A DNA stretch of 32,000 nt. It comes from Aciduliprofundum boonei T469. Its GTDB lineage: Archaea > Thermoplasmatota > Thermoplasmata > Thermoplasmatales > Aciduliprofundaceae. This document shows, piece by piece, positions 1,857 to 30,045 of the stretch. The stretch lies in assembly GCF_000025665.1 (NCBI RefSeq), contig NC_013926.1, forward strand, positions 990,001 to 1,022,000, written 5' to 3'. Under the pieces are notes generated by a model. That model was not told the origin of the DNA and ran no database searches. It worked only from the letters and a program-made list of their open reading frames with translations. Position 1 is the stretch's first letter. Each line of letters begins with the position of its first letter. Position numbers and translations under genes: made by a program.

Positions 1857-1917
1857 AGGATCACCACTTAACCTTTGGATACGGAGAATAAATAGATTTT
1901 CACGAAGTATCAAAAAA

Positions 1918-2181
1918 TCATTTATATGTAGTTTCAGACCTTTTCTCAATTTTCACAATAAGTACTTCTTTTCTTTGCTTATCTATCATATATAAAATCC
2001 TGTATCTACCAACTCTTTTTCTCCTTATATTTTCATAGCCTTCAACCTTTATGGTTCCTTTATGCCAAGGATCTTTTCCTATCTCTATTACTGCTTCTTT
2101 TATTTTCTCTTTCAATTTTTCATCTTTTAATCCTTTAATCTGTCTCCTGCTTTTAGGAGAGAAAAGAATGTCGTAGCTCAT
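1918..2181 (-). CDS. relE: RelE/ParE-family type II toxin
   Basis: 87 aa. The C-terminal RYRILYMIDKQRKEVLIVKIEKRSETTY pattern is typical of RelE/ParE. It overlaps the upstream antitoxin gene by 4 nt. Confidence 0.8.
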   Translation of the reverse strand: MSYDILFSPKSRRQIKGLKDEKLKEKIKEAVIEIGKDPWHKGTIKVEGYENIRRKRVGRYRILYMIDKQRKEVLIVKIEKRSETTYK

Positions 2182-4509: not shown

Positions 4510-7182
4510 TTACATTAGCTCTATGTGTACATAGTTAGCTGCATCACTATACACTTCATCATAAAGATCTTTAACCTCTCCCTTTGAAGAGAAATAAATT
4601 ATTTGCCAACCTTTATTGCTCAGTTCCTTTAATATATCAAACATTCTTCTAAGACGATCAGGATCCGCTTTTATAAACGGGTCGTCCAGAATGAAAAATC
4701 CTTTTTCGTTAAGTATTTTTTCTGCCAGATAGAGACGAATGGCAAAGTAAAGTTGGTCAATGGCCCCTCCAGAAAGCTGTGCAGCAGATAAAACCACACC
4801 ATCATTTCTCTCCACCTTTATTTCTTTTGTCTCTGTGTCATAGAAAACATTTACATACAGGCCATCGGTGATTCTATTAAAGTATTCTATTGCTTTACTA
4901 TCCTCTCCAAACACTTCAGTAACTTTCTCTCGCTCTTCTTCTTCAATCTCTTTGAATATATTTCTGGCAACTAGGATGTACTTTCTTCGCAGTTTATTGT
5001 TTTCTATGAATTCACTCAAAAGTTTCTGTATTCTGTTCAAATCACCTATTCCATTACATTTTATCTCTTCATCTGGGGATAGCGGGGTTAGTATTATTTC
5101 TGGCTCATTACATTCAAGAATGGCTTTTGCAACCCTTTCTATATCTCTAAATTCCTCTTCATACTCCTTCATTTTCTCTTCAAGCACTTGAATTTCATTT
5201 TGCAAAGACTCTAACTTCTCTTTAAGCTTGTTTTCAACCTGCTGATTATATTCAACATCCACTTCAACATCCCTATACTGTTCAAGAGCCTTTAGCTCTT
5301 TTTTCCAAGCATCCAGTTCCTCATCCAGGTCCCCACTTTCATGATCAAACAGTGTTCGAAGTTTCTCCCGGAGTTTATTCACTTCATTTTTAACATCATT
5401 TTTCTTTATTATAATAGATTCTAATTCGTCTATGCTCTCCACCCCATATTTTTTCATTAAGGATGAAATTTCATCCTTGGCGTTTTGGATTTTGGATTTT
5501 AAATCAGTCATGTCCTTCTCCAACCCCACTCTATCTTCTTGTAACTTCTTCAGTTTTCCCTCCAGTTCACTTAGGTATTTTATTAATTTTTCATATTCTT
5601 CTCTTATTCTTTCTATGTCCCCTATATACAAGTTTACATTTTCCTTTACAGGTATATCCAATTTACCAACAAGCTTCATAATTTCATCCTTTGCTGTCTG
5701 GAGGTTATCGCTCAGTTTTTTGCAATCACTTTTTTTACTATTATAAAGTTGCTTAGCGATATCCAAATCTCTTTGTGCATCATCTTTTCTTTTTTCCAGT
5801 ATAGAAAGCTGGTATTCTATATCGCTTTTGGTAGGTTTTACTTCCAATACTGGGGTAATATCATTTATTATCTCTTCCCATGTATCTTCTTTTTTCTCAC
5901 CCTTTACCATCCGGTACTGTACGTATCCTAATAATAAACCTATCGATGCAAATGCAAGTCCTCCGGCTATAGACAATATTGAACCTAAAATTGCTCCAGC
6001 TGCTATTGCTGTTATACCAGTTACAAAAGAAAAGATCATAATATAATTGAACACTTTCCTTATAGATTGTGATTTTTCTAAATTCCAAGAGGTGTTTTTC
6101 AGATCTTCAATCCTTTTTTGAATATTCTTCTTAGTAATGTAATTCCATGCGTAATCTGCCATCTTTTTCTCCTGGGATGCACGATTTACTTCATTTTCAA
6201 GCTCATTTAATTTCTTATCACATTCAATATAGTCGGGTTCTATCCTGTTTACCTCATTTATATAATTCTCCAGTGTGTCTGCTAACTCTTTTTGTTTTTT
6301 AAGTTTGTTTAATTTCTCTTCTAAAGCTTTCTTCTCAGCTATGACATTATCCTGGTCTTTGATAATATCATTATGTTTATTAACTAGTTTTTGAAGTTCT
6401 TTATTGTACTTTGATAGATCATCATTATACTTTTTCCAAGCGTCTAGATCATCTTCTTTATATTTCTCATAATTTTTAAGTTCATTCAGTTTCTCAGTTA
6501 GATCATTCAATAGTTGTTCTCCAGCCATAAGCTTATTCTTCTTTTGCACAAGATGCAACTTTTCTAGATGATTGGAAATCTCCCTTTCTTCTCTTTTTTT
6601 GCTTATCAATTGTATTTCCATCTCTTCAATATTGTTTTCTTTTAAATCATTAATAAGAGCGTTAATACGTTTCAAAAGGTCATCTGCTTTATCAATTCTA
6701 CTTTTCAGTTTATGATCTCTCTGTGAATTGCTGAATCTACCTGTATCTGTGATCTTTCCCACATCAAGTAACTTTCTTTGAATACTTCCAACAATATCAA
6801 CTTTGGACCCAGTAAGTCTCTCAGTTAGATTGTTATAATAATCATCTTCATACTTTATTGATAAGTCACTATCTCGTATGACAAATATGTTTCTGAAATC
6901 CTCTGCGGAGATATCCTCTGTCAGATACCCATCTTGTGGTAACTTGTACTCTTTACCTTCATATTCCAGTATAACATAACCTTCGGGAGTGCCTTCAATT
7001 CTATTGATTTTATCAAAAAGGGAGTTATATCCCCTCTCCATCATAATTTTCAGTAGAGCATCGACAATCAAGGTCTTTCCCTTCTCATTTTTACCCCATA
7101 AAATATTGAAGTTTTTTAACTCAAACTCTCCAGTATCTGAAAGAGGACCGTATCTGAAAATTCGAAAGTTCTTTATCTTCAT
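4510..7182 (-). CDS. Rad50/SbcC-like SMC-family ATPase with a central transmembrane hairpin
   Basis: 890 aa. Walker A GKNEKGKT. Long heptad-like K/E/L-rich arms. Signature LSGGAIDQLYFAIRL and Walker B FFILDDPF. Residues about 377-422 (nt 5917-6054) form about 45 hydrophobic residues (IMIFSFVTGITAIAAGAILGSILSIAGGLAFASIGLLLGY). No CxxC hook is present. Confidence 0.85.
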   Translation of the reverse strand: MKIKNFRIFRYGPLSDTGEFELKNFNILWGKNEKGKTLIVDALLKIMMERGYNSLFDKINRIEGTPEGYVILEYEGKEYKLPQDGYLTEDISAEDFRNIFVIRDSDLSIKYEDDYYNNLTERLTGSKVDIVGSIQRKLLDVGKITDTGRFSNSQRDHKLKSRIDKADDLLKRINALINDLKENNIEEMEIQLISKKREEREISNHLEKLHLVQKKNKLMAGEQLLNDLTEKLNELKNYEKYKEDDLDAWKKYNDDLSKYNKELQKLVNKHNDIIKDQDNVIAEKKALEEKLNKLKKQKELADTLENYINEVNRIEPDYIECDKKLNELENEVNRASQEKKMADYAWNYITKKNIQKRIEDLKNTSWNLEKSQSIRKVFNYIMIFSFVTGITAIAAGAILGSILSIAGGLAFASIGLLLGYVQYRMVKGEKKEDTWEEIINDITPVLEVKPTKSDIEYQLSILEKRKDDAQRDLDIAKQLYNSKKSDCKKLSDNLQTAKDEIMKLVGKLDIPVKENVNLYIGDIERIREEYEKLIKYLSELEGKLKKLQEDRVGLEKDMTDLKSKIQNAKDEISSLMKKYGVESIDELESIIIKKNDVKNEVNKLREKLRTLFDHESGDLDEELDAWKKELKALEQYRDVEVDVEYNQQVENKLKEKLESLQNEIQVLEEKMKEYEEEFRDIERVAKAILECNEPEIILTPLSPDEEIKCNGIGDLNRIQKLLSEFIENNKLRRKYILVARNIFKEIEEEEREKVTEVFGEDSKAIEYFNRITDGLYVNVFYDTETKEIKVERNDGVVLSAAQLSGGAIDQLYFAIRLYLAEKILNEKGFFILDDPFIKADPDRLRRMFDILKELSNKGWQIIYFSSKGEVKDLYDEVYSDAANYVHIELM

Positions 7183-8270
7183 TACAGCACCTCCATCATA
7201 GCCTTGAGCACATACTCAGTAATTCTCCTTTTATCCTCTTCAGAATAGTCCAGAGCATTTAGTTTTTCGGAAAACTGTAGAAATAATGGATCATTCAATA
7301 TCCTTGTGAGATCCTGAACGTGATTTGTAATATCTGATATTTGGGATGAATATTTCTCTTTCAAAACATCAAGATATTGTTGAATATCCCCCTCTGAAGT
7401 GGCGTGTTTTGCTCTATTTATGTATCCACTTATCTCTATCATCACTTTGTAATTTTTATCAGTGCCGGAAAATAGCGGCTCTATCTCACTTTTTATTTGC
7501 TCTAAAGGATCAATCTCTTCAAGGGGATCTATGTATATCTTCTTTTTTTCGTAATGGAAAGTATCTATAGAGTACTCCTGTGGAGGCTCTCCCACCGTAA
7601 AAAGATTAACCTTTCTTCTACCAATTTCTTTAGTGGTTATGGACACAGGAGATCCAGGATAAACAAAATATCCATTATTGGGTAGTTTGATAACCTCGAA
7701 ATTTGTGTGGAAATGTCCTGCAAGTACATAGGAAATAGGTAAGTCTTTAAAATACGCAGTCTTCACAGGCATATAACGTTTGGTTCCCTCGTCTCCAAAA
7801 CCTTTGAGCCAACCGAAGGCATCTGTGAGTTCGCCGTGGAAAATGAGTATGTTTGTCTTAGAATTGTCCATAAGTTTTCCCATCTCATATAACCTTTCGA
7901 GGATCTCTTCCTCAGTGAGGTTTTCAAAGGGCAGACCCCAGAAAACTGAGGTGTCCTCAGAATATGGCTGCTTAAAATCATGAATCACTACTACATTTTT
8001 GCCCCAGTAAAGGGATTCTTCAAAAATTTCATAATCATGGTTCCCTGGAAGAATGAGTGTGGTGAATGTTGAGTTTTCAAATAGAGATCTTATATGGGGC
8101 CTTAGCTTTTCACCATCCACACCCTTGTCAAACATGTCACCTGCAATTACTAGAATGTCAATTTCATTCTTATTGCCAATTTCTATTATCTTCTCTAGAG
8201 CCTGCCACCTTTCATCATCCACATTTCGGAGATGGATATCTCCGGTATGAAGTATTTTCATAGAAATCAT
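7182..8270 (-). CDS. Mre11/SbcD-like calcineurin-fold metallophosphoesterase nuclease
   Basis: 362 aa. Phosphoesterase motifs HTGDIHL, IAGDMFD, LPGNHD, IFHGEL and LAGHFH. Its TAA stop overlaps the ATG of the downstream ATPase gene by 1 nt (TAATG at 7180-7184). Confidence 0.85.
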   Translation of the reverse strand: MISMKILHTGDIHLRNVDDERWQALEKIIEIGNKNEIDILVIAGDMFDKGVDGEKLRPHIRSLFENSTFTTLILPGNHDYEIFEESLYWGKNVVVIHDFKQPYSEDTSVFWGLPFENLTEEEILERLYEMGKLMDNSKTNILIFHGELTDAFGWLKGFGDEGTKRYMPVKTAYFKDLPISYVLAGHFHTNFEVIKLPNNGYFVYPGSPVSITTKEIGRRKVNLFTVGEPPQEYSIDTFHYEKKKIYIDPLEEIDPLEQIKSEIEPLFSGTDKNYKVMIEISGYINRAKHATSEGDIQQYLDVLKEKYSSQISDITNHVQDLTRILNDPLFLQFSEKLNALDYSEEDKRRITEYVLKAMMEVL

Positions 8271-8288
8271 AAAGTTTTATGATGAAGA

Positions 8289-8302
8289 TTTATAAATATA
8301 TT
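8289..8302 (-). promoter_or_regulatory. TATA-like box for the Mre11/Rad50-like pair
   Basis: The A/T-only stretch TTTATAAATATATT is centred about 25 nt upstream of the ATG at 8270. It lies in the 88-nt gap downstream of the CARF genes. Confidence 0.4.
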
Positions 8303-8358
8303 GTGCCGAAGTAATCTAAACTGAGAATGGGGATTTTTATTACATAACTCCAAGAAAC

Positions 8359-9096
8359 CTACTTTATTTTATCTAAGAATTCCACCAGCACTTTTCCCCT
8401 TTCTGTCAATTGTACTTTTCCATCTTTCATCTCTATGTACTTGTGGTTCTTGAAGTATGCGATTGCCCTATCTGCATTCTCCCTTATCTCTTTCTTGAAC
8501 TCTTCCAGTGTCTTTGGAGTTTTCAGTGTTTTGAGCATCTCTTCCCATTCCTTATTTTCTTGGCTCTCAAAGTTCATGGTGGGCAATTTCTCTATTATTC
8601 CCTTCTCAGCGTGATAAGCATCCACAGAGAGCTTTGTTCCTCTCCTTATGCTCAGATGGCTATAGTACTCTTTCTTATGCACCACATTCATGGTTGCCAA
8701 GTATAAAGCTAGAGAGCCCAACTTGTGGCCACAGCTCACATTAAGCTTTATGTCCACATCCTCTTCTTGTATATGCGAGGAAATGTGATCATCCATTGCC
8801 CTGTACATTATCCTGTATGACTCATCGTAATTAGTTAAATTCACCTTTATGAGCTTGAAGTTTCCTATTTTTTCCACAAGCTTTGCAAATAACTCCTGCT
8901 CCTCATAGCTCAATTCTTTAATCGTTCTCTCAAACTCTTCGTTGGAATAATCGGAGAATATCAGGAGCTTGTCAAATTCCCCTGCGTACTCCATTCCCTC
9001 CAAGAATTTCTCCACTTCCTCGTTGTTCAACTTCTTCCTTATATCCTCGTCACTCTTGTAGGTGTAAATCGTGAGAGTGGAAGCGAAAAGCTTCAT
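8359..9096 (-). CDS. CARF-domain protein with C-terminal winged helix-turn-helix domain (wHTH; Csa3-like regulator)
   Basis: 245 aa. CARF signature [DN]x[ST]xxx[RK] present as NVSCGHK (nt 8722-8742). Rossmann-like N-terminal beta strand MKLFASTL. The C-terminus YFKNHKYIEMKDGKVQLTERGKVLVEFL is wHTH-like. Confidence 0.6.
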   Translation of the reverse strand: MKLFASTLTIYTYKSDEDIRKKLNNEEVEKFLEGMEYAGEFDKLLIFSDYSNEEFERTIKELSYEEQELFAKLVEKIGNFKLIKVNLTNYDESYRIMYRAMDDHISSHIQEEDVDIKLNVSCGHKLGSLALYLATMNVVHKKEYYSHLSIRRGTKLSVDAYHAEKGIIEKLPTMNFESQENKEWEEMLKTLKTPKTLEEFKKEIRENADRAIAYFKNHKYIEMKDGKVQLTERGKVLVEFLDKIK

Positions 9097-9728
9097 AGTG
9101 CATTACCTCCGAAGAGATATGCAGCGCTGTTGGCAACCAAAATCTTCGTTCTCCCATTCTTCTCCTCCCTTATGAGATTTGCTAGTATTAACCTGCTCTT
9201 TGCATCCGATATCGTGGAATAGCCCTTGTTAAGCTTGCTTTTCAATGTCTTCATGTCCATTTTCCCACCTTGGCTGTGTATTAGGGCTTGCAGAATCTGC
9301 ACCGCCGTGGAATCGCTTTCATTCATTTTAAAAAAGTTCCTCTGGCTCGTGGATAACCTTATGGGCACTCTCTTTATTGTAGTCTTTCCGTTCTCTGTGA
9401 CTAGGTATATTATTGGAATGTCCATCAGGGCTGCCTTGAGAGCCAATGAGAATGACATTATCTTCGTTCCCCCAGTTATGTTTGCCACAGATGTGTTGTC
9501 TATGTGCTCATTCACCTTTGTTATGCAATCGTAGAAGTTCATCGGGTCCACTTGCACCGCCTTGACATTTGAAAGCTCTTTCTTCACCTCATTTAATGCT
9601 TTTTCAACTTTCTCTTTCTCTTCATCGTTCACATATCCGTAAAACACCACATTCTCATCCGGTTTGAGTTTCTTGGCTGCTTCTATAACCACCTTCGATG
9701 TCCAGCCTAGCGTGGATAGCAGTTTCAT
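9093..9728 (-). CDS. CARF-domain protein with C-terminal wHTH (Csa3-like regulator)
   Basis: CARF signature NITGGTK (nt 9462-9482). First-strand motif KLLSTLGWTS. C-terminal wHTH ILQALIHSQGGKMDMKTLKSKL...ANLIREEKNGRTKIL. The ORF track starts at 9755, but the ATG at 9728 has GAGGAG 6 nt upstream. ATGA overlap with the next gene. Confidence 0.7.
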   Translation of the reverse strand: MKLLSTLGWTSKVVIEAAKKLKPDENVVFYGYVNDEEKEKVEKALNEVKKELSNVKAVQVDPMNFYDCITKVNEHIDNTSVANITGGTKIMSFSLALKAALMDIPIIYLVTENGKTTIKRVPIRLSTSQRNFFKMNESDSTAVQILQALIHSQGGKMDMKTLKSKLNKGYSTISDAKSRLILANLIREEKNGRTKILVANSAAYLFGGNAL

Positions 9729-9777
9729 TTTTATCTCCTCATGGCGATTAACCATCTTAAAGAATATATTACTTTCT

Positions 9778-9798: not shown

Positions 9799-10031
9799 GA
9801 AAGATGTTAAATAATACCCAAGGATGATTTTTCTACCTTAAAATGGGGGTATTGAAAATGCAAGGTAGAATGTATAATCGGACATCTTATCCGAAAATAC
9901 CGATTGCGTCAAAGCATTGTAGATTTCGTATTGTAAATGCAAATTATCTGGCTACAGAGCATTTGTGTCGATGGTTCGTTATTCTAATGAGCGATAAATC
10001 TCCTATACCTCGCAGAGGAAACTATGCGAGC

Positions 10032-11159
10032 ATGGTGGCAAAGGCGAGGAGCACTTTGCCCTTGCTATTGCCATTTGGATGCTCATATGTTCTTCTAAAC
10101 ATTGAGATAATTGGCAACGAGATGAATCTGATTGTAAAGTCTCCATACAAAGGCGAAGCCATACCTATAGATAGATTGGGACTCTTAGCTTATATGGCAA
10201 TTGAAATATTGAAGAGAGGAAGTTACAGAAAAGATCCTTTTATGAGTAAATATGAGAAATACTACGATAAGTTTAGAGAGTACATACCCGAAGATTACAG
10301 GATAACGGTGAACGGAGAGTATACAACTTTTAATTACCGCACATTGGAAGAGATTTATCAGAAATTTCCAGAGATCATTGAAGATCTAAGTGGTGTACAT
10401 TCCCCTGTAAATCCCCCCCAATGCCAGAGCTGCCCATTTAAAAATGCATGTGCGTATTTATCCGCAACTGCTGATCTCATGGATTTGCATATGTTAGATT
10501 TTTTTCACAACATTCCAAGAATATATCATGCCCTTAGAAATGCGGGGGTAAACGCTCTTCTTTATATAGGAATATACATGTTCAATCGCTTTCGGTACTT
10601 GAATGTTGATGAGAGCTTAATAAGTGCTGCAGAGTATCTGTCAGAGGGAAAAAACGTAGCCATATATGTCAGGTTTGGTATAGAGCCAAGAAATCGCATG
10701 TTTCTATCGCTGCTGGATGGAAATGTATACAAGGATGCCTACCAGCTGGTTTTGAAGAACCCGAATATGAGAATTTTTGACGAGAGTGGCGATGTGACTG
10801 ATGAGCTTGTTATAAAGAGCCTCATTCTAAGATCCTTATTAACATCTAGAAACTCCAATGAAATAAACAAGTTTCTCAAAGATTATCCTGAGAACGAGAA
10901 GTACATTCTCTATTTCTCCTTCTTAACCAATAATCCTTTCGCAGAGAACATATTCTATGCAAGGGGAACCGTTGACGAGAACGATCCTTCAACCATGTAC
11001 CTGAACGAGAAAAACGGAGTGGTTGATCTATTAAGCACGATATACAATTCTAAATTGTATAAAGATGGATACATAGAAGTTGATAAAGAAAATTTGAAGG
11101 TTTATCCCACAAAAAAGTTGTTGAACACTCTTAGCTCTCTTTGCATGGGGGGAGAATAA
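10032..11159 (+). CDS. Hypothetical protein A with Cas4-like Cys arrangement (paralogue of the next gene)
   Basis: 375 aa from the ATG at 10032; the ORF is open from 9843. Cys17 lies in the context FGCSYVLL, and CQSCPFKNAC (C-x2-C-x5-C, nt 10422-10451) starts at codon 131. ITVNGEYTTFNY aligns with IRINGENVDVHFN in protein B. Confidence 0.7.
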   Translation: MVAKARSTLPLLLPFGCSYVLLNIEIIGNEMNLIVKSPYKGEAIPIDRLGLLAYMAIEILKRGSYRKDPFMSKYEKYYDKFREYIPEDYRITVNGEYTTFNYRTLEEIYQKFPEIIEDLSGVHSPVNPPQCQSCPFKNACAYLSATADLMDLHMLDFFHNIPRIYHALRNAGVNALLYIGIYMFNRFRYLNVDESLISAAEYLSEGKNVAIYVRFGIEPRNRMFLSLLDGNVYKDAYQLVLKNPNMRIFDESGDVTDELVIKSLILRSLLTSRNSNEINKFLKDYPENEKYILYFSFLTNNPFAENIFYARGTVDENDPSTMYLNEKNGVVDLLSTIYNSKLYKDGYIEVDKENLKVYPTKKLLNTLSSLCMGGE

Positions 11160-11995
11160 TGATTCCGGGAGATTTCCTATACACAAACTACTTTTGCAGA
11201 TCGGCCCTCTTGCTAACCCGTGATTTCTACTCAGATTACAAGCCAAACATGGATTACATCGTGTTAAAATTGATGGGGAAAAAGATATTTTTCAGGCGTA
11301 AAGGTAATGATTTCATACTGGTCAATCAATATGGAGAAAAGAGCATATTAAGGAAAACTAAAGCATGGATAAAAGTTCTGATTGCCAAGGCACTGAAGGA
11401 TTCTGGAGAGAATTTCAGAGATATAAGAATAAATGGTGAGAATGTGGATGTTCATTTTAATGATCTGCTTATAATCGGAGAGGTTGCATCGCAGATTAAC
11501 ACCTTCACCTTGGAGAGACTTACAAACCATTCATCTGGAAATCTTGGGTGCAAAGTTCCCTGCCCTTTTAAAAGATACTGCCAGGATGGCATAGAACCAA
11601 CTACATCCTACGATCCTCAAAAAAATCTCTATTATCTCACTCTTTACTCATCCATAGTGGATTTAATTCTTAGCTCGGATATTCTGTTAGCTGGCATAAA
11701 TGTAGTTGATAGGTACATTGACAATTTTGGAAATTTGCAGAGAAAATTAAACGGAATTTTAGCCAAACTCTCACAGGAGATAGGTTATGATAGAGCAGAT
11801 GCACTTCTCTGGCTTGGAAGAAAGGTTATGATGGGAGAGAGGGTTAAAGACACAGAGCTAAACTTGGAAGATTATGGAGGATACATAACAAGAGTTGGGA
11901 AGTGGATAATACCCACAGACAAATTCTGGAATCTGGTTTATGGAGAGGGGAAAGAGGAGAAGATAAGAGGGTTGTACGAGATTTGGGGTGATTGA
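11159..11995 (+). CDS. Hypothetical protein B with Cas4-like Cys arrangement (paralogue of the preceding gene)
   Basis: 278 aa from the ATG at 11159, which overlaps the upstream TAA (TAATG) and follows GGGGGGAG. Cys13 lies in the context YFCRSALLL. CKVPCPFKRYC (C-x3-C-x5-C, nt 11549-11581) also starts at codon 131. Confidence 0.7.
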   Translation: MIPGDFLYTNYFCRSALLLTRDFYSDYKPNMDYIVLKLMGKKIFFRRKGNDFILVNQYGEKSILRKTKAWIKVLIAKALKDSGENFRDIRINGENVDVHFNDLLIIGEVASQINTFTLERLTNHSSGNLGCKVPCPFKRYCQDGIEPTTSYDPQKNLYYLTLYSSIVDLILSSDILLAGINVVDRYIDNFGNLQRKLNGILAKLSQEIGYDRADALLWLGRKVMMGERVKDTELNLEDYGGYITRVGKWIIPTDKFWNLVYGEGKEEKIRGLYEIWGD

Positions 11996-11996
11996 G

Positions 11997-13103
11997 ATGA
12001 GGGAGAAATACATATCCGCAATTAATGAGATTGAGAAGTACTATGCGTTTCCAGATAAGCATAGAGAGCTCATGAAGATCATTCCCCTTGTGAAGAATGG
12101 TATATTCCTCATATACGGTTATTATGGGTACGGTAAGACTGTGTATGCAGATTTAATTGGCAAGGTTCTCTTCGGCGTGAATTCTTCTCAAGGCAAGGTA
12201 AACTTGAGCAACGAGCTTGGCATACACGATGTGTTCTTCTGGATAGATGCTGGGCAATTGGCAAAGGGAAAGGAGGTAATAGAGCCAAGGGGAATAATAA
12301 GCTCTCCGTTTAAATTCATAAACGAGCTGCAGAGAGGAAATGGCAGGATATACAACACTCTCTTATCCCTAATGAGCGAGAAAAAGATAGTGTACAGGGA
12401 TAGAGTATTTAGCACTCCTGATTTCGTCATGCTGATGGACGCAAATCCAATGGACTCTTCCTCTGTTAAGATACCAAGAGCGTTACTGGACAGGGTAACT
12501 GCAAGCTTCACCATGCTCACGCCCAACGAGGATGAGAGGGAGAAATTGATGTATTTAGAGCACTCTTCACCGCTCGATGCCGTTGAGCCAATGCTCACCT
12601 ACGAAGACATGCAGAAGATATGGAGCGAGGTGGAGAGAATAAAAGTCCCAGAGGGTTTGGTATTCTTATTAACGCACTTGATACACAATTATTTGAATGC
12701 CTGTGAGAAGGGAAACAAAGAGTATTTCACGCCAGAGATGATGAGGAGCATGTGCGAAGGATGCAGGTGGAGAGTAGAGCCATGCTCAGAGCTTCTAGAG
12801 CCTCTCGGGCAGAGATGGTGGATTGATGCCATAAAGATTGCAAAAGCGAGGGCCTATTTTGAAGGGAGAGAGGTAAACGAAGAGGATGTGTTCTTTGCAG
12901 TTAAGTATGTTCTGCCCCATAGGGTACATCTTAGAGAGGACATAAAGATAGCCTATGTATCCCCTGAGCTTTGGGCTGAGAAGTTGGTAGAGAGGATAAA
13001 AACGGAGCTAGAAACGAGGTGGATTCCAGCCTTGAATGGAAATGAGAAAGCTTTGAGAGATTCTGAAAGAACGCTTCATTTCATCTTGGAGGGGAGAGAA
13101 TGA
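11997..13103 (+). CDS. MoxR-family AAA+ ATPase (divergent)
   Basis: Walker A GYYGYGKT (nt 12117-12140). Walker B region FKFINELQRGNGRIYNTLLSLMSEKKI. Sensor/Arg-finger region FVMLMDANPMDSSSVKIPRALLDRV. The ATG at 11997 follows GGGGTGAT; an alternative GTG lies at 11988. C-terminal C-x16-C-x2-C-x6-C cluster. Confidence 0.8.
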   Translation: MREKYISAINEIEKYYAFPDKHRELMKIIPLVKNGIFLIYGYYGYGKTVYADLIGKVLFGVNSSQGKVNLSNELGIHDVFFWIDAGQLAKGKEVIEPRGIISSPFKFINELQRGNGRIYNTLLSLMSEKKIVYRDRVFSTPDFVMLMDANPMDSSSVKIPRALLDRVTASFTMLTPNEDEREKLMYLEHSSPLDAVEPMLTYEDMQKIWSEVERIKVPEGLVFLLTHLIHNYLNACEKGNKEYFTPEMMRSMCEGCRWRVEPCSELLEPLGQRWWIDAIKIAKARAYFEGREVNEEDVFFAVKYVLPHRVHLREDIKIAYVSPELWAEKLVERIKTELETRWIPALNGNEKALRDSERTLHFILEGRE

Positions 13104-14515
13104 ATGTTGAGAACATAATGAAAGAAGTTAGCTCTGAGTTCGGAAAGGTCATGCCTTTGAAAATAGTGGACGATGCTCCATCCGCGTACTTTGACTGGGA
13201 AAGCGTCACGCTGCCAAAGAGGTTCTTAGATTGGGATGATGAAATGATAAAGAATGTAATAAGGCACGAATTTGGCCATCTATTTTTCTCTCCCCGAAAC
13301 CCGGATGTGGGTGTGGTAATCAACTACATAGCTAGCTTGTTTGGTTACGAGAATCCATGGCTCTTTACGAACATTCTCACAGATTTGATTGTGGATACCA
13401 CGAATATGGAAGTGTTCGGAGAAGAGTACCTGCGTTTTCTGGAGAGGAGCATAGAAAATGCGGATAAAGGAAGAACCTTGAGAGTGATGGCCGGGGTTTA
13501 TCATGAAAAGGCTGAAAAGCTAAATCTAAAAACCTCACTTCCAAAAAATCATATAGGTAAGGAAATATACAAAATACTCAACAACAATGAGACGGATTTT
13601 TACCTGAGAGTTATAGAGATTGCAAAGTTGTTCTTACCCTATTATGATTTTCAAACACCACTTCATTTCAGGATACTCATATTTTCCGATGACTCGCCGG
13701 CAGAGATTGCAAAATCTCTCATAAAGGTGAAGGTTGGAAGCGATGTGATGGACGAGCTAAGGAGATTGGCAGGAGAAAGGGGAGGATTCTTGATATCCGA
13801 TCCAGTCATGGTCGCATACGAGAAGATGAAGATGGTTTCCACATACTTGGAGCTTGAGGAGAGTATGGAAGGCATGGAGAGCAAACAGATCAACTATGGG
13901 CCTTGGAGCATCGGTGACGAGCCCTACGAGCTGGACATGACTAAAACTCTAACCAGTTACGGCATAGTGCTTCCCGGAGTTTATTCTACAAAATCCGAGA
14001 GCATAGACATGGGAAACGAGAGAGAAGGAAAAAGCTACAGAGACTCAATAATAATCTTGGATTGTAGTGGCTCTATGGAAGGAGAGCCTTTTGAGAGAGC
14101 TAGAGAAGCTGCGTATGTTATGGCCAGAGAGATCCAGAAAGCCGGGAAGAAAGTAGGGCTAATCCCATTCTCCGGGTATGTCATTGAAGATAGGGTGGTG
14201 TATCCCACAACCGATTCTTCAAGATTGAACGATATACTCACTAGAATCAAGCCGGGGGGAGGTACAATGCTTCAATACGCGCTCCAATTCGCTTTGCAAT
14301 TCGGGAAAGAATACTATGTTTACATATTATCCGATTCTGATGTTTACGATGTGCGTTCCACAGAGGAGCTTTTGGATGAGTTTAGGGGAAGATGCACTTT
14401 CTTCCTCATATCTTATGAAGAGGTAAACAGGTGGTTTGAAAAGGATGGAATAAAGATTGTTGAGATCTCTCCAGATGGTATTGTTAAGAGAGCTTATGAG
14501 GAGGTGAAAAAATGA
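13100..14515 (+). CDS. Putative zinc metallopeptidase (HExxH, DUF2201_N-like) fused to a von Willebrand factor A (vWA) domain
   Basis: 471 aa. HEFGH at nt 13265-13279, with downstream NILTDLIVDT. vWA MIDAS motif DCSGS at nt 14060-14074, followed by GLIPFSG and GGGT. ATGA overlap with the MoxR gene. Confidence 0.8.
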   Translation: MNVENIMKEVSSEFGKVMPLKIVDDAPSAYFDWESVTLPKRFLDWDDEMIKNVIRHEFGHLFFSPRNPDVGVVINYIASLFGYENPWLFTNILTDLIVDTTNMEVFGEEYLRFLERSIENADKGRTLRVMAGVYHEKAEKLNLKTSLPKNHIGKEIYKILNNNETDFYLRVIEIAKLFLPYYDFQTPLHFRILIFSDDSPAEIAKSLIKVKVGSDVMDELRRLAGERGGFLISDPVMVAYEKMKMVSTYLELEESMEGMESKQINYGPWSIGDEPYELDMTKTLTSYGIVLPGVYSTKSESIDMGNEREGKSYRDSIIILDCSGSMEGEPFERAREAAYVMAREIQKAGKKVGLIPFSGYVIEDRVVYPTTDSSRLNDILTRIKPGGGTMLQYALQFALQFGKEYYVYILSDSDVYDVRSTEELLDEFRGRCTFFLISYEEVNRWFEKDGIKIVEISPDGIVKRAYEEVKK

Positions 14516-15183
14516 AGAATTTAGATAAGTATGTTAAGGACCTAACGGAAAGGATAAAGATAAACTATGAAGGTTTGAAAATATCCGAAAAGGGTACGGA
14601 AATGGAGAAGAAAGCTTACATGGGCTTTTACATTCCTTACCCAAAAACTCTAGATAACGATATAATCATTGGAAGTGAAGTTGATGAAATGGCACCTATC
14701 AGAAGATCCTCAATAGTTGTTTGGAGAATAACCCCAAGTGGTTTTGAGCTCATATCTGCTAAGGACCAAAAATTTGAGCACAAGGTTAGGAAAATGATTG
14801 AAGAGACAAGAGACAAGGTGGTTTACACTTACGATGAAACAAAGCTATCTCCCAATATTACCCGACTGCTTCAAAGAAGAAGGCTAAAGGACTTGGAAGA
14901 ATCTGTTGAGAGATTATCATTGCACATGGATAAAAGCGACATACCTGTGCCTTGGGATCCAATTGATTTTGATGATGTATCAGAAGCTTGGAGAAGTGGA
15001 GATACGAGGATTGTGAACCTTCACTGCGTTGCCGAAGCCCTGCGTATTTATTCCATCTACCTAATAGTGAAAGTCACAGAGATGATAAGAAGCTTGAACA
15101 CCGTAACCCTAGACCAGTTCATGGTGAAAGGAAACTCCAATGGGAAGATAAAACTTCCAAAGCTGGTGGATTCGACTTACTAA
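14512..15183 (+). CDS. Hypothetical protein, last gene of the MoxR-vWA operon
   Basis: 223 aa. ATGA overlap with the upstream gene, preceded by GAGGAGGTGA. I recognise no motif. Confidence 0.7.
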   Translation: MKNLDKYVKDLTERIKINYEGLKISEKGTEMEKKAYMGFYIPYPKTLDNDIIIGSEVDEMAPIRRSSIVVWRITPSGFELISAKDQKFEHKVRKMIEETRDKVVYTYDETKLSPNITRLLQRRRLKDLEESVERLSLHMDKSDIPVPWDPIDFDDVSEAWRSGDTRIVNLHCVAEALRIYSIYLIVKVTEMIRSLNTVTLDQFMVKGNSNGKIKLPKLVDSTY

Positions 15184-15278
15184 ATCACTCAATTTTCATA
15201 CCACCACCTTACTTTATTTTATGTAATATTTACTTCGGAAGAATATTTTTATTTACCTTATAAATAGATATAATTGAG

Positions 15279-16423: not shown

Positions 16424-17269
16424 TCACAATACACCTCCGTAGATTATCGCTCCACCTTCCATCTTCGGTATCTCCCATTCTTCCTCATCCTTCATGTTTA
16501 TGTAAATTATCGCTTTCAAATCTTCATTGTTCAAAGTCAATTTCTCTGGATGTTCTCTATCCACCACAACAACCATTCCCTTTCCACGCTTGACATACCA
16601 GAACAGCTCTCCCTCAACCTTGTCAATCACCTTTCCATCCCTGTATAACTCAACGAAACCATAGATGTGCTTTTTGAGAACGGGTGGCATTTTGGGGTGC
16701 AACCTTATCATGTCTCCTTCCAATCCCTCACCGTCTTTCTTCATCCTTATCTCTCCCCTGTATTCTTTCACGGGATAACCCCAGCCAACAACTCTCAAAG
16801 TCCCGTTCTTCAACTCTACCTTGTCTATCAACCCCGCATGGAGCTTCCAGAGGGTCTCGTTATCAACCAAGTATCTCGCTTTCCTTGTGGATATGTGGTA
16901 GAATTCCTCATCCTCCGTTATCCACTCAAACCAATCGCTCTTTGCGAAGGTATCGTTTATGTGTATGACCTCGTAATTGATTTCTCCCCCGATTAACTTG
17001 TTCTTTACGAGGATTATTCCCTTTCCCGTCTCCAAAATCCCTTCCACATACGGCAGGTACTCTCCCACGAACACTCTCTTTCTCCAAGGTTCTACACAAT
17101 CCAAGCATACCAGAGATTCCATCTCTATGGTTCCGTAAATGAATGGGTCTTCGCCGTACCTTTGCGGTTTAATCGTTATTTTGCCACTCTTGAACACGAA
17201 CCCGCCAACCCAAACTACATCTCCTCTATACTCTCTCCAATCATACTCATCATAATACATTCTCACCAC
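16424..17269 (-). CDS. Hypothetical protein co-transcribed with the recombinase
   Basis: 281-aa ORF overlapping the 3' end of the recombinase gene by 20 nt. I recognise no motif. Confidence 0.65.
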   Translation of the reverse strand: MVRMYYDEYDWREYRGDVVWVGGFVFKSGKITIKPQRYGEDPFIYGTIEMESLVCLDCVEPWRKRVFVGEYLPYVEGILETGKGIILVKNKLIGGEINYEVIHINDTFAKSDWFEWITEDEEFYHISTRKARYLVDNETLWKLHAGLIDKVELKNGTLRVVGWGYPVKEYRGEIRMKKDGEGLEGDMIRLHPKMPPVLKKHIYGFVELYRDGKVIDKVEGELFWYVKRGKGMVVVVDREHPEKLTLNNEDLKAIIYINMKDEEEWEIPKMEGGAIIYGGVL

Positions 17270-17843
17270 CTCTAAATCCGCTCCATCCAGCAGTTCTTAC
17301 TTTTATTTCCTCCACATCCTCATCAGTGAAGGGTAGGTTTAGATAGTGGTTCATTGCAGTAATCGTAGTATGGCCTTGGGACATTGCTATCAAAGGCATT
17401 GCGTTTGGATAACTGACTACGAGCCAACTCTCCCATGTCTTGCGGAATGTTTTTACGCTTATATTCCCCAGCCCTGCTTTCTTTCCCCAGAAGGTTAGCA
17501 TGTTGTTTAGGGTTATTCTATCTGGCATTTTATCTACATACAGAATAAAATTCTCCACATGCGTTATTCCTTGCGTGGAGAGATAAACATACCTTTCCTT
17601 CATCGTTCTCTTCTTCTTTCTGGACGCTTCGGGAGGGAGATAAATGCTCCTCGTTTTCTTGTCAAACCACTCTGGATGTTTTTGAAACCTTTGCAATTCT
17701 ATGTATCTCATCCCCGTGTAGAGCAGGGCATTTATTATCTCCCTGTACCTGTATTTCAGGTCCTTGCGAAAGATTGTGTCAAGGAATGTGTCATATTCCT
17801 TTGGGCGCAGTATCCTTACACCATTCTTTATTATCGTTCTCAT
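17250..17843 (-). CDS. Tyrosine recombinase/integrase, catalytic domain only
   Basis: 197 aa. Arg box LLYTGMRYIEL. HxxR-like position KTFRKTW. C-terminal MSQGHTTITAMNHYL carries the candidate Tyr nucleophile. There is no N-terminal core-binding domain. Confidence 0.7.
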   Translation of the reverse strand: MRTIIKNGVRILRPKEYDTFLDTIFRKDLKYRYREIINALLYTGMRYIELQRFQKHPEWFDKKTRSIYLPPEASRKKKRTMKERYVYLSTQGITHVENFILYVDKMPDRITLNNMLTFWGKKAGLGNISVKTFRKTWESWLVVSYPNAMPLIAMSQGHTTITAMNHYLNLPFTDEDVEEIKVRTAGWSGFRGGENVL

Positions 17844-17885
17844 TTAAACATATATAATCCACTTTGGAAATAAAACACCTTCGTT

Positions 17886-18092
17886 TCGTTTATTTTAAAC
17901 GATACTAAAACTGCCCCTTCATTTATATACTCCATGGCTTTGAAAAGGCATTTATGGGGCTCTAATAGTGTCGTTTTATCTTTAAACGAAATCATTTATC
18001 CATTTATGCATTTATCTTGCTGTTGAAAATGGAGGAATGTAGGGAATTTATACCTCGTTTATTGGTTTATGAGGATAACAAGATTCATTTAT
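17886..18092. repeat. Iteron/palindrome cluster upstream of the recombinase gene
   Basis: Perfect palindrome TCGTTTA-TTT-TAAACGA at 17886-17902 and a related TCGTTT-N7-AAACGA at 17971-17989. Six copies of CATTTAT start at 17920, 17949, 17993, 18001, 18009 and 18086; three of them are in strict 8-bp tandem at 17993-18016. Confidence 0.6.
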
Positions 18093-18178
18093 CTATTTAT
18101 AAATGTAGATATGCAGATAATCTCAATGGCCAAAGTTATCATATTTAGCCCATAAGTTATCAGTAGAAAATAAAAAAA

Positions 18179-18832
18179 TCAAAGAAGTTTCTGGCGGAGT
18201 TGCTCGTAGTCTATCCCTGCTTTCTCGGCAAGCTTCTTCAATTCTCTCTCGGCATTCATTACTAAATCTCTCGCTCTCTCTTTCCACATTTCAAAGTTCT
18301 TTTTCACTTCTTCAATTCCTTGCTCGGATATCTCTAAAACTTCCAAAACATGCATTATTCTGCTCTTCATCGCATCTCCAAAGAACTTTTCATAGCTATC
18401 GTACATGCGTTTAAATTCGTTCTCTTCGCTGTGAAGGCATTTCAGGGACTTAATTATGCCATCCATGTCAATTAAGCCTCCCCTATTTACCCAATCTATT
18501 ATATCATTCTCTATTATGCCTTTGGCATACATTTCCACAGTTTTGGCATTTTCCCTTATGATTGCTGACATTTTTCTAACAACATCATCTTCTCCATCCA
18601 TTACCCGTATAAATGCGAGATTCGCATCCCAGTACTTGCTTGCAAGCCCGGACATGTGCGAGCCTGCAATCCAGCCAATTTGTTTTCCTTCGTAATGCTC
18701 TTTCCTTATGTAAAAGAACCATCTCAGCTCGTCCAGCTCCTCTTTCTCCTTGGATCCATACTTCACTCCCTTCTCGCTAGTAGGATAGCCCATCTTTCCC
18801 ACATATTCCCAAAATTTCTTTTCTTCATTCAT
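18179..18832 (-). CDS. Hypothetical protein
   Basis: 217-aa ORF with protein-like composition. I recognise no motif. Confidence 0.65.
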   Translation of the reverse strand: MNEEKKFWEYVGKMGYPTSEKGVKYGSKEKEELDELRWFFYIRKEHYEGKQIGWIAGSHMSGLASKYWDANLAFIRVMDGEDDVVRKMSAIIRENAKTVEMYAKGIIENDIIDWVNRGGLIDMDGIIKSLKCLHSEENEFKRMYDSYEKFFGDAMKSRIMHVLEVLEISEQGIEEVKKNFEMWKERARDLVMNAERELKKLAEKAGIDYEQLRQKLL

Positions 18833-18896
18833 TTTTCATCACCATGTTTGCCATTGTTTCCAATATTATTAAATTTATTGCCGAAATTATTCCGAT

Positions 18897-18924
18897 AAGA
18901 ATAAATACTGCCATGCCATTTATT
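18897..18924 (+). promoter_or_regulatory. TATA-like box embedded in an inverted repeat upstream of the HTH-CBS gene
   Basis: AATAAATA at 18900-18907 is centred about 27 nt upstream of the ATG at 18930. AATAAAT (18900-18906) and ATTTATT (18918-18924) form an inverted repeat around ACTGCCATGCC. Confidence 0.4.
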
Positions 18925-18929
18925 GTTTT

Positions 18930-19484
18930 ATGATACCATCTTTGAGTAGCATAAAGGAGCGAAGAAGAAGGCTGGGGTGGAGTCAAAAAGAGCTGGCAAA
19001 AAGGAGTGGAGTGTCACAATCAGCAATAACGAAGATAGAGAAGGGTGACATGAACCCATCTTACACGCTAGCGGTGAAGATTTTCAATGCCCTGGATGAA
19101 GGAGAGCGAGAGAAGTACAAGGGAAAGAAAGCAAAGGATTTGATGAACACTACTGTGATATCTTTATCTCCCAAGGATAGAGTGAAAAAAGCAAGAGAGT
19201 TGATGAAAGAGCACGGGATAAGTCAGATACCGGTGGTGGAGAGAGATAAGGTTGTGGGGATGATCACGGAGAATGATATTCTGGAGGGATACGAAAAGCA
19301 CGGAGCTGGGATAGTTGATCTCTTGGTTGAGGATGTTATGGGTCCTCCGCCAATTGCAGTGAGAAAAGATACGAGCATGGATGCCATTGTTGAGCTTTTG
19401 AAGCAGGAGCAGGCGTTGCTCGTCGTGGAGAATGATGAGCTCTTGGGAATAATCACCAAAGCAGACATAGTTTACAAGGGATGA
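18930..19484 (+). CDS. XRE-type HTH transcriptional regulator fused to a CBS-domain pair
   Basis: 184 aa. HTH LGWSQKELAKRSGVSQSAITKIEKG. Two CBS repeats, including ISQIPVVERDKVVGMITENDIL and ALLVVENDELLGIITKADIV. Confidence 0.85.
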   Translation: MIPSLSSIKERRRRLGWSQKELAKRSGVSQSAITKIEKGDMNPSYTLAVKIFNALDEGEREKYKGKKAKDLMNTTVISLSPKDRVKKARELMKEHGISQIPVVERDKVVGMITENDILEGYEKHGAGIVDLLVEDVMGPPPIAVRKDTSMDAIVELLKQEQALLVVENDELLGIITKADIVYKG

Positions 19485-19596
19485 AAGTTCGTGAAATATT
19501 TGATATATGACTTATCAAATGTTTCTCCGATGAACACACCAACAAATTTTTTAGGCACTCAATATGGAGAAAATTCGGTTAAGGAGGCGAGGTAGA

Positions 19597-19707
19597 ATGT
19601 TGACGGATTCCTTGATAGAAGGATATGTAAAAACGAGGGAGAAAGAATACCTAATGGCGTTAATGCAAGTTATGAGTGAAATGGAAATAAAGGAGTTTGC
19701 ATCGTGA
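19597..19707 (+). CDS. Possible small ORF (36 aa) upstream of the 189-aa gene
   Basis: The ATG at 19597 lies 9 nt after AGGAGG. The product reads MLTDSLIEGYVKTREKEYLMALMQVMSEMEIKEFAS, and the stop is 10 nt before the next gene. An in-frame upstream ATG at 19564 would give 47 aa. The ORF is below the track length cut-off. Confidence 0.3.
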   Translation: MLTDSLIEGYVKTREKEYLMALMQVMSEMEIKEFAS

Positions 19708-19717
19708 GGTGATGTGA

Positions 19718-20287
19718 ATGGACATGATAGATGTGTTTTTAGGGGTCATGCAAGTGGATGGCGGGGATGTAATCCTGCATTTCAATTGGGATGCCGATAC
19801 ACGGAATTTGATGGAAATACAAGAGGAATTTGAAATCGATGGAAAAATATACATAACTTTAGCTGCACCCTTGCAGGACATAGGAACCTTGAAAGATTAT
19901 GGCATAATAAACAAAGGAAATAAAACCACATTCAACGATACGGTGAATAAAATTCTTGAAAGATGGAACTTCTTTAAAGAGAAATTGAAAAATGGAGAAA
20001 TAGAAATGCAAATACTCGCAGAAAATCCATTCATTGTAATAGACGATGATAAAAGATTCGCTTTTTTCTTGTTTTACAATATAATATTCCTTGCAGAGAT
20101 AATTGGAAAGTATAGAAGAAAGGAGACATACAAAAAATTGAGAATACGATTCTCATCCCTTGAGTACGGAGAAGGAGAATTGGATGGCACGATTAAATTG
20201 AAAGTAAAAGAAATTGACACCACCGATAACGAGGAACTATCTTCAGCATTAGTAGAAGCAGTATTGAAAGAAGAGGGAGATATATAA
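19718..20287 (+). CDS. Hypothetical protein
   Basis: 189-aa ORF preceded by GGTGATG. I recognise no motif. Confidence 0.65.
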   Translation: MDMIDVFLGVMQVDGGDVILHFNWDADTRNLMEIQEEFEIDGKIYITLAAPLQDIGTLKDYGIINKGNKTTFNDTVNKILERWNFFKEKLKNGEIEMQILAENPFIVIDDDKRFAFFLFYNIIFLAEIIGKYRRKETYKKLRIRFSSLEYGEGELDGTIKLKVKEIDTTDNEELSSALVEAVLKEEGDI

Positions 20288-20572
20288 TGGTATTTCGTGA
20301 ATAGAGGCATTGAGAGTTTAATTATTATGTTTTCACTTTCAGAATTATCTTTTAGGAAGTTAATATTTACATATATAATGTGGGGTTCTACTATTCATAA
20401 ATACCCCCAGATTTTAAGTTAGCTAGTGACATTTATTTTCACATGTCAATCTGTAGCGCTCTTTAACCAAGATAATATCTCTTATCGCCCTAGAGTTTAT
20501 AGCTTCTTCAATTAGTGCATGTTAATTAAATGTTAATCATATTCATATATTCTGTTTATTATTACGCGTATC

Positions 20573-20821
20573 ATGGATGCTAAATTATTAGCATTTCTAA
20601 AGGACGGTAAGTACAGAATTAAAACATTGGAGTTACTATATAAAAAGCCAAGACTTTCCAGCGAGTTGGCCACTTTATTGAACATAAATAGGGCATCTAT
20701 GAGTAGGATTCTAAGTGATCTAAAGAAGAAGGATCTCGTCGAATCTACATCCGATGGAACTAGAACTGTTGTTTATACTATTACAGAAAAGGGGAAAAAA
20801 TGTCTGGAGGAGTTAAAATGA
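20573..20821 (+). CDS. Small winged-helix transcriptional regulator (ArsR/MarR-like)
   Basis: 82 aa. RLSSELATLLNINRASMSRILSDLKKKDLVES, then a wing TRTVVYTITEKG. Its stop overlaps the ATG of the next gene (ATGA at 20818-20821). Confidence 0.75.
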   Translation: MDAKLLAFLKDGKYRIKTLELLYKKPRLSSELATLLNINRASMSRILSDLKKKDLVESTSDGTRTVVYTITEKGKKCLEELK

Positions 20822-22002: not shown

Positions 22003-22016
22003 TGTATATTTAACAT

Positions 22017-24575: not shown

Positions 24576-24730
24576 TTTATATTGATCTAGCATATAGTAA
24601 ATTAAACACTAAACTCATAAGAGGTTTATTTCTTGTATTTATTTACCCACTATATAAGATGAGAAGCTTCAAATAAAGTAACAAACTTAAAAATAAACAT
24701 TATTTCTCTCAATTAGAAATTAAAACATCA

Positions 24731-30042: not shown

Positions 30043-30045
30043 TTT

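Follow-up and report, generated by a model that had tools for sequence, protein, structure and literature searches.

MoxR-class ATPases and their vWA-domain partners are well established as chaperones of assembly and remodelling (PMC9976466, PMC3893208), and MoxR-vWA-centred ternary conflict systems have been proposed, mostly from multicellular bacteria (Kaur, Burroughs, Iyer and Aravind 2020, PMC7159879). Here we analyse a stretch of 32,000 nucleotides of the archaeon Aciduliprofundum boonei T469 (contig NC_013926.1, positions 990,001 to 1,022,000), hereafter the window, in which a MoxR gene and a vWA gene form an operon with three further genes. To our knowledge MoxR/vWA pairs are widespread, but the clients known for them are few and almost all metalloenzymes. 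The present operon would be a MoxR/vWA pair with clients resembling nucleic-acid-handling proteins. It probably encodes an undescribed DNA-end-handling machine. The specific form of this reading that we favour, judged from sequence and structural models, is a lineage-restricted complex that would handle DNA ends and depend on the MoxR/vWA pair for its assembly or activation; we hold it tentatively, as falling a little short of evenly balanced.

A conserved five-gene operon

Five consecutive open reading frames on the forward strand, here called g1 to g5, make up the operon. They are listed below together with the putative transcription signals.

9858..11159, forward strand: g1, 433 aa
11159..11995, forward strand: g2, 278 aa, a shorter paralogue of g1
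11997..13103, forward strand: g3, 368 aa, a MoxR-class AAA+ ATPase
13100..14515, forward strand: g4, 471 aa, with an N-terminal HExxH domain and a C-terminal vWA domain
14512..15183, forward strand: g5, 223 aa, with a predicted DEDD/RNase H-like exonuclease fold
9807..9816, forward strand: putative operon promoter, a TATA-like box TTAAATAATA about 45 nt before the g1 start, from sequence inspection
15193..15222, forward strand: putative archaeal oligo-T terminator, T-rich tracts (TTTT, CTTTATTTTAT), from sequence inspection

An earlier sequence-only reading of this DNA had described five coupled genes on one strand, and all of the junctions it gave were found in the sequence. The g1/g2 junction is TAATG (11157-11161); at the g2/g3 junction the stop codon TGA (11993-11995) is separated by 1 nt from the ATG at 11997, with GGGGTGAT at 11985-11992; and the g3/g4 and g4/g5 junctions are both ATGA (13100-13103 and 14512-14515, respectively). 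The start of g1, which had been placed at 10032, has to be moved to 9858, because the extra 58 residues, including the first invariant cysteine (C37), are kept in a homologue that is 51% identical. Each of the g1 homologues P0001-P0003 (96-97%, 82% and 51% identical) has a length of 433 aa, and their N-terminal 90 residues are conserved. The TATA-like box lies within the 102-bp divergent intergenic region common to g1 and a CARF gene, and the T-rich tracts, which start just past the g5 stop codon, putatively mark the operon end.

Conservation of the gene order had been suggested as a check on the operon, and the order does recur, over about eight independent contigs, for which we use the handles L001, L002-4, L009, L010/11, L012, L013, L014 and L017/18. 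Both the order and the tight junctions are the same in L001, L002 and L017, and partly so in L009-L014, so the arrangement is far beyond chance. All of the operon-bearing contigs belong to DHVE2/Aciduliprofundum-type vent archaea. Between the window and L002, g3 and g4 are 64% and 45% identical, as against 22% for g1, 32% for g2 and 29% for g5. Thus the MoxR ATPase g3 and the HExxH-vWA protein g4 form a slowly evolving core, and g1, g2 and g5 diverge much faster.

Homologues are few. Among 5.8 billion clustered proteins there were three of g1 and eight of g3, and a HMMER profile of the cysteine domain shared by g1 and g2 retrieved 18 proteins among 1.84 billion representatives, none of them a canonical Cas4. 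A scan of GTDB species representatives gave 3 loci, carried by only two representatives, both DHVE2 (the named carriers are DHVE2 group archaeon and Aciduliprofundum sp. JdFR-45), and a scan of JGI metagenomes with g4 gave 2 loci, both from an already known lineage. A MoxR protein of Hecatella (L016, 32% identity) is solitary and was judged uninformative. No PADLOC system model was matched, which agrees with the earlier expectation that the operon is not a catalogued defence system: PADLOC v2 gave nothing for g2 to g5, and for g1 only a weak match of its tail to the Cas4 model (E 0.013). Searches of PHROG returned only weak vWA-domain matches for g4, IMG/VR viral contigs scanned with g3 returned no match, and in the literature linking MoxR or vWA with Cas4, HerA/NurA or DUF2201 we found no description of such an operon. 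g1, g2, g5 and the N-terminal half of g4 fall in no described family.

A patchy distribution of this kind, together with the fast evolution of g1, g2 and g5 relative to g3 and g4, would also suit a system for anti-virus or anti-plasmid defence, in which the MoxR/vWA pair and the HExxH peptidase license g1/g2 effectors, with g5, to destroy invading or host DNA. MoxR-vWA conflict systems of the kind proposed in PMC7159879 offer a model for it. We consider this unlikely, though a serious competitor to the DNA-end-handling reading. The lack of PADLOC, PHROG and viral-contig matches counts against it, although such matches would not be expected for a new system; the evidence from the proteins and their neighbourhoods is given below.

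The MoxR/vWA core and its partner proteins

The first point to note about g3 is that it was correctly placed in the MoxR class but departs from that class at one motif. By profile it matches PDB entry 2r44_A (E 8.4e-17), and in Pfam it matches AAA_lid_2 and AAA_5 with 29.2 and 22.1 bits, neither of them below cutoff; bpMoxR scores 16.3 bits, under its cutoff of 27. The Walker A motif, G41-Y-Y-G-Y-G-K-T48, is of the canonical GxxGxGKT form and invariant in 9 sequences. The canonical Walker B motif hhhhDE, in contrast, is not present in g3 or its homologues (9 sequences). In its place stands F-I-N109-E110 (residues 107-110, window 12315-12326), invariant in all nine homologues, in which N109-E110 aligns to the A-D-E of 2r44 and the Mg-binding Asp has become Asn. 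Other features are a sensor-1 residue (N150), R166, and an insert of four cysteines (C236, C253, C256 and C263) between core and lid. The N-E Walker B hints at a slow-hydrolysing switch, not a motor, and on this basis we propose that hydrolysis is slow and that the ring may act as a switch.

Two conserved elements characterise g4, and both had been recognised from its sequence. The HExxH motif, H56-E57-x-x-H60 (nt 13265-13279), is invariant in 7 sequences and lies in an N-terminal domain of about 300 aa, in which D95, D99, T101 and N102 are also invariant; D95 and D99 are candidate zinc ligands. The C-terminal vWA domain has a complete metal ion-dependent adhesion site (MIDAS), comprising DCSGS at 321-325 (nt 14060-14074), T389 and D412, of which D321, S323, S325, T389 and D412 are invariant in the same 7 sequences. 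This domain matches Pfam VWA_2 (E 7.8e-11, 43 bits against a cutoff of 27) as well as VWA, and resembles the CobT, BchD and CoxE types. No profile match of the N-terminus to a DUF2201-type peptidase was found: residues 1-300 gave no Pfam match in any of the 7 members at E up to 1, peptidase and DUF2201_N families included, and a g4 profile searched against the PDB was matched in its vWA part only.

g1 and g2 are paralogues, aligned by hhalign over 156 columns with a probability of 98.1% (E 1e-13), and they have in common the Cas4-type cysteine pattern that had been noted for them. In the N-terminal domain of g1 the cysteines are C37, C189, C192 and C198 (C-Xn-C-X2-C-X5-C), and in g2 they are C13, C131, C135 and C141. 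All four are invariant in 13 sequences, with the first spacing in g2 ranging from X2 to X5. Across the alignment of the shared domain in these 13 sequences, the only other invariant position is a single Leu; the catalytic D...(D/E)xK and QxxxY are absent as conserved motifs, and no acidic or Lys column is conserved. The proposal that g1 and g2 are active nuclease effectors is therefore unlikely, which also tells against the defence reading.

Outside the shared domain, g1 has a C-terminal domain of about 230 aa that ends in a winged-helix-like G-Y-I...P-T-K-K-L motif, and g2 carries the motifs MIPxDxLYTNxxCR at its N-terminus and GY...IPxDKFW at its C-terminus. In each C-terminus a predicted helix-hairpin-helix bears a comparable motif, G-Y-I...P-T-[DK]-K; the match between the two by hhalign is weak (E 1.3e-3, probability 18%). 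An inserted C2H2 finger is found in several g1-like relatives (the L015 copies, P0040, P0048 and P0051).

Matches of g1 and g2 to Cas4-type models in the databases are confined to the last ~45-65 residues, and all are non-significant. The tail of g1 matched Cas4/PDDEXK_1 models in three libraries (E 0.01-0.3), and the family profiles scored below cutoff (PDDEXK_1 11.6 bits against 22; TIGR00372 13.5 against 65). A profile search of the PDB gave AddB (E 0.15) and Cas4 (E 0.77) as its top two matches, neither of them significant. The AlphaFold2 model of g1 is poor, with a predicted local distance difference test score (pLDDT) of 59.7, and its predicted alpha-beta-beta-beta-alpha-beta order is compatible with a PD-(D/E)xK fold. 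A Foldseek search of this low-confidence model against the PDB returned noise, with nothing found, and against BFVD the top fold match was a RecB-family exonuclease (E 0.11). Membership of the Cas4 family was considered and not adopted, the scores being below cutoffs and no nuclease motif being conserved. Because no nuclease motif is conserved, the model is poor and there is no fold match in the PDB, we call g1 and g2 Cas4-like cysteine-cluster domains, probably devoid of catalytic activity.

That universal conservation in g1 and g2 is limited to the four cysteines would also be expected if the operon served metallocofactor insertion or maturation, an alternative raised in the sequence-only reading. 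Here g3 and g4 would load or repair a metal or Fe-S centre of g1/g2, which would themselves be the end products, maybe with a function unrelated to DNA. There are precedents, since characterised MoxR/vWA pairs insert metals (NorQD, PMC9976466) and RavA-ViaA assists Fe-S or respiratory complexes (PMC3893208). The likeness of the g4 vWA domain to the CobT, BchD and CoxE types, and the Cys4 insert borne by g3 itself, point the same way. This alternative leaves the predicted DEDD fold of g5 unexplained, and on the evidence of the neighbourhoods, given below, we regard it as distinctly improbable.

For g5, which had been called an orphan, there is indeed no Pfam family match to the protein itself, but its AlphaFold2 model matches DEDD exonuclease domains. 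The model was built from 8 sequences, has a mean pLDDT of 73.8 (about 88 in the core), and shows the order beta-beta-beta-alpha-beta-alpha-beta-alpha. Foldseek against the PDB found archaeal PolB exonuclease domains (probability 1.00, TM(query) 0.46), followed by NrnC, Nibbler, RRP6 and DnaQ, with retroviral integrase cores lower in the list; all E-values are 6e-3 or weaker, and the list consists mostly of DEDD exonucleases. One g5 homologue matches Pfam RNase_H_2 (E 0.029). On the model, then, g5 has a DEDD (DnaQ/PolB-exo-like) exonuclease fold. It keeps the ExoI Glu (E56) and an ExoIII-like H171-x3-[E/D]175, and W148-D149-P150 is invariant. The first ExoI Asp is lost (G54; G, K or A among homologues) and the ExoII acidic position is variable, so that the full DEDD catalytic set (ExoI DxE, ExoII D, ExoIII D) is incomplete. 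Of the five proteins, g5 is the likeliest candidate for the catalytic part of the operon.

Genomic neighbourhoods and possible function

In the loci L005-L008, a tight operon that includes NurA-HerA-Mre11-Rad50 opens with homologues of g2 (25 bits by hmmsearch with the g2 profile) and of g5. Its Rad50 carries a canonical CPVC hook; g3-g4 lie next door, after a divergent gene pair. In L010, HerA is directly upstream of g1 and is 44% identical to the HerA of the L005-L008 lineage. At the distant locus L022, a genuine PD-(D/E)xK nuclease (Pfam PDDEXK_1, E 3.5e-15) is followed by two g1-like genes and a MoxR gene. When the cysteine domain was aligned by hhalign to this single nuclease, 20 columns were aligned, covering the cysteine motif only. 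A tblastn search of the nuclease against phages gave no match, and phmmer matches in the PDB, to internalin, were judged spurious. Csa3-type winged helix-turn-helix (wHTH) regulators, fused to CARF or P-loop domains, adjoin the module in four lineages. Csa3a of Sulfolobus is a direct activator of nurA, herA, mre11, rad50, SMC-like genes and CRISPR adaptation genes (PMC5587795), which provides a precedent for the combination of a Csa3-type regulator with resection genes seen here.

It is on the gene order conserved in about eight contigs, the identities of the components, the embedding of g2 and g5 homologues in the NurA-HerA-Mre11-Rad50 operon, the HerA gene of L010, the L022 nuclease, the SbcCD-like neighbour in the window and the recurrent Csa3-type regulators that we base the DNA-end-handling reading. 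According to this reading, a g1-g2 heteromer would carry a metal or Fe-S cluster and recognise DNA, probably ends, through the cysteine domain and the winged-helix-like C-termini (with the C2H2 finger in some relatives), and g5 would trim 3' ends or merely hold them. The MIDAS of g4 would dock the g1-g2-g5 complex to the g3 ring, which, as a slow ATP switch, would remodel or license the complex, and the HExxH domain of g4 may perform a proteolytic activation or licensing step. Expressed under Csa3-type regulators, the module would work together with resection machines of the HerA-NurA and Mre11-Rad50 type.

A more elaborate version makes the operon an unrecognised accessory of the HerA-NurA/Mre11-Rad50 machinery: dead Cas4-paralogue Fe-S end sensors and a DEDD-fold trimmer would be loaded or licensed by a slow-switch MoxR and a peptidase-vWA protein, and the whole would be induced by Csa3-type regulators. 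We think this rather unlikely, though not far-fetched; if true, DNA-break processing would be tied to anti-virus signalling. The module of one lineage sits physically within the essential operon for DNA-end resection in archaea, and it would offer a testable handle on the regulation of archaeal resection and on the role of inactivated Cas4-like Fe-S domains outside CRISPR.

The same embedding argues against a defence function, as does the finding that the flanks of the module in L002 and L017 consist of housekeeping genes. The defence reading also draws on L015 (Aciduliprofundum sp. JdFR-45), where the g1-g2 pair occurs twice in tandem before the MoxR gene g3 (4606-8907), and on the surroundings of the operon in the window itself. 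These are as follows.

9093..9755, reverse strand: CARF-wHTH (Csa3-type) protein, 220 aa (PADLOC CARF3 model PDLC01872, E 7.9e-133; Pfam Csa3_N and CARF_Card1)
8359..9096, reverse strand: second CARF/Csa3-like wHTH protein, 245 aa, from a sequence match
4510-8270, reverse strand: SbcCD-like pair, an SbcC/Rad50-like ABC ATPase of 890 aa and an Mre11-like phosphoesterase of 362 aa
71-1243, reverse strand: DUF4143/AAA_14 ATPase (PADLOC candidate defence family PDC-S01, E 1.5e-81)
17250-32000: probable integrated conjugative or defence element, with a tyrosine integrase of 197 aa at 17250-17843

The two CARF-wHTH genes are in tandem and are transcribed divergently from g1. The 220-aa protein is probably a ligand-responsive regulator, acting either on g1-g5 or on the SbcCD-like operon that contains its gene; the SbcCD-like pair is co-oriented with the two CARF genes and adjacent to the operon region. 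The SbcC/Rad50-like ATPase has no CxxC zinc hook and matches the PADLOC LmuB models (E 3.5e-13). A canonical Mre11-Rad50 was ruled out for this pair, which lacks the hook and shows only 25% identity; given the missing hook and the resemblance to LmuB, we take it to be a defence-type (Lamassu-like) paralogue. Besides the integrase, the element at 17250-32000 includes a segment of low GC content (25-34%) that encodes a type II methyltransferase of 852 aa (E 5e-172), together with a mad8/HerA/TraG-like ATPase (24731-26431) and two type IV secretion system pilin-like proteins (30046-31991). No CRISPR array, cas gene, tRNA or Rfam match was found in the window. The neighbourhood in this genome thus does have the look of a defence island that had been ascribed to it, with PDC-S01, CARF3, the LmuB-like SbcCD pair, the methyltransferase with mad8, and the integrase.

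The divergent gene pair upstream of the module in L017 (3448-5297, reverse strand) and L005 (5526-7516, reverse strand) encodes two proteins, one (374 or 414 aa) a P-loop NTPase fused to a Csa3-type winged helix and the other (242 or 249 aa) without annotation; the two pairs are homologous and stand where the window has its CARF genes. At L021 6492-6965, beside a stand-alone g2-like gene, lies a homologue (31% identity) of the 245-aa CARF protein.

The window shares a syntenic beta-CASP metallo-beta-lactamase nuclease (41% identity) with L015, which is very divergent and GC-rich, and the shared beta-CASP and ribbon-helix-helix (RHH)-like neighbours, which count against defence, suggest long vertical residence. 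This region occupies 1500-1949 (reverse strand) and 2469-4028 (forward strand) in the window and 2041-4537 in L015; an RHH-like protein of about 95 aa adjoins the operon in three lineages (the window, L015, and L012 at 3550-3822). From their positions, the SbcCD-like pair and the CARF genes of the window appear to have been inserted between the beta-CASP/RHH-like genes and the operon. Given the housekeeping flanks in L002 and L017, and the NurA-HerA-Mre11-Rad50 genes in L006 and L010, the link to resection genes is better supported than a generic defence island. What endures of the sequence-only reading is the architecture of the operon, its g3/g4 core and the paralogy of g1 and g2; active g1/g2 nucleases do not, and the resection link is favoured in place of the defence island.

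The neighbourhoods also bear on cofactor insertion. A conserved metalloenzyme neighbour was looked for and no known metalloenzyme gene was found as such in any locus; in none of the contexts examined is there a client linkage like that of NorQD, CoxDE or CbbQO. The L022 nuclease and the NurA-HerA-Mre11-Rad50 embedding would, like g5, be left unexplained. There is moreover a stand-alone branch of four-Cys proteins (365-372 aa; L021 4859-6495, L023 3639-5035, L024 561-2049), beside which no MoxR or vWA gene is present on these short contigs. Genes of this branch are always followed by a homologous protein of about 179 aa, and they adjoin tRNA-synthetase or FtsZ genes.

In L002 (13379-17596, an S8 peptidase of 1406 aa with BNR-like repeats) and in L005 (10280-13174, an Ig/LTD-rich protein of at least 965 aa), the module is followed by a gene for a very large secreted protein. 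They raise the idea that the MoxR/vWA pair assembles a surface or extracellular structure, as in the tail development of Acidianus two-tailed virus, the archaeal virus MoxR/vWA precedent cited in PMC7159879, with g1, g2 and g5 as unrelated passengers. No homology links these two large proteins, so their presence is probably coincidental; none occurs in the window, L009 or L017, none of the five operon proteins is predicted to be secreted, and no viral homologues were found. We regard this idea as very improbable indeed.

Several observations weigh against the DNA-end-handling reading too. The SbcCD-like pair of the window is hook-less and has the appearance of a defence paralogue. Confidence in the g1 model is low, and the case for a Cas4-like fold depends on motif-level, non-significant matches. 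As g5 is without the full DEDD catalytic set, no component of the operon is demonstrably an active nuclease. In L002 and L017, with their housekeeping flanks, there is no repair gene nearby. Few neighbourhoods were sampled, and since they come from one archaeal clade with shared ancestry, the apparent co-occurrence is inflated. The narrowness of the clade (DHVE2 vent archaea) likewise limits the generality of the result.

Comparison with described systems

Of the systems that handle DNA ends in archaea, the NurA-HerA-Mre11-Rad50 operon is linked to the present one by the co-operonic g2 and g5 homologues in one lineage and by the adjacent HerA in another. However, none of g1 to g5 is homologous to any of the four proteins, and the association is not universal across loci.

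The resemblance of g1 and g2 to the Cas4/AddB/RecB nucleases lies in the iron-sulfur 'staple', with which they share C-Xn-C-X2-C-X5-C and a similar N-terminal T-x3-C-R-W helix motif. They differ from these nucleases in having no conserved D...(D/E)xK or QxxxY and in their extra winged-helix-like C-terminal domains. In the same way, g5 shares with the DEDD (DnaQ-like) 3'-5' exonucleases (for example, that of archaeal family-B polymerases) its predicted fold, the order of its secondary-structure elements, the ExoI Glu and H-x3-[D/E], but has G, K or A in place of the first ExoI Asp, does not conserve the ExoII acidic residue, is extended by helices at the N-terminus, and has a conserved PWDP motif that is peculiar to it.

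The ternary conflict systems of PMC7159879 likewise combine a MoxR-vWA core with fast-diverging partners, some of them of nucleic-acid-targeting folds, and they sometimes carry peptidase domains on the vWA component. No VMAP or beta-propeller third component was seen in any of our loci, and bpMoxR was below cutoff. Unlike those systems, the present operon is restricted to DHVE2 archaea and linked to resection genes.

With the MoxR/vWA modules RavA-ViaA, NorQ-NorD, CbbQ-CbbO and CoxD-CoxE, the operon has in common adjacent, coupled genes for a MoxR ATPase and for a vWA protein whose MIDAS is complete. It differs from them in the N-E Walker B and the Cys4 insert before the lid of g3, in the novel N-terminal HExxH domain of g4, and in its partners, which are Cas4-like and DEDD-like in place of a metalloenzyme client gene. 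The operon therefore lies outside the definitions of the PMC7159879 ternary systems, of Cas4, of canonical DEDD exonucleases and of any PADLOC system, and belongs to the broad MoxR/vWA chaperone class, with a set of partners that is unprecedented there.

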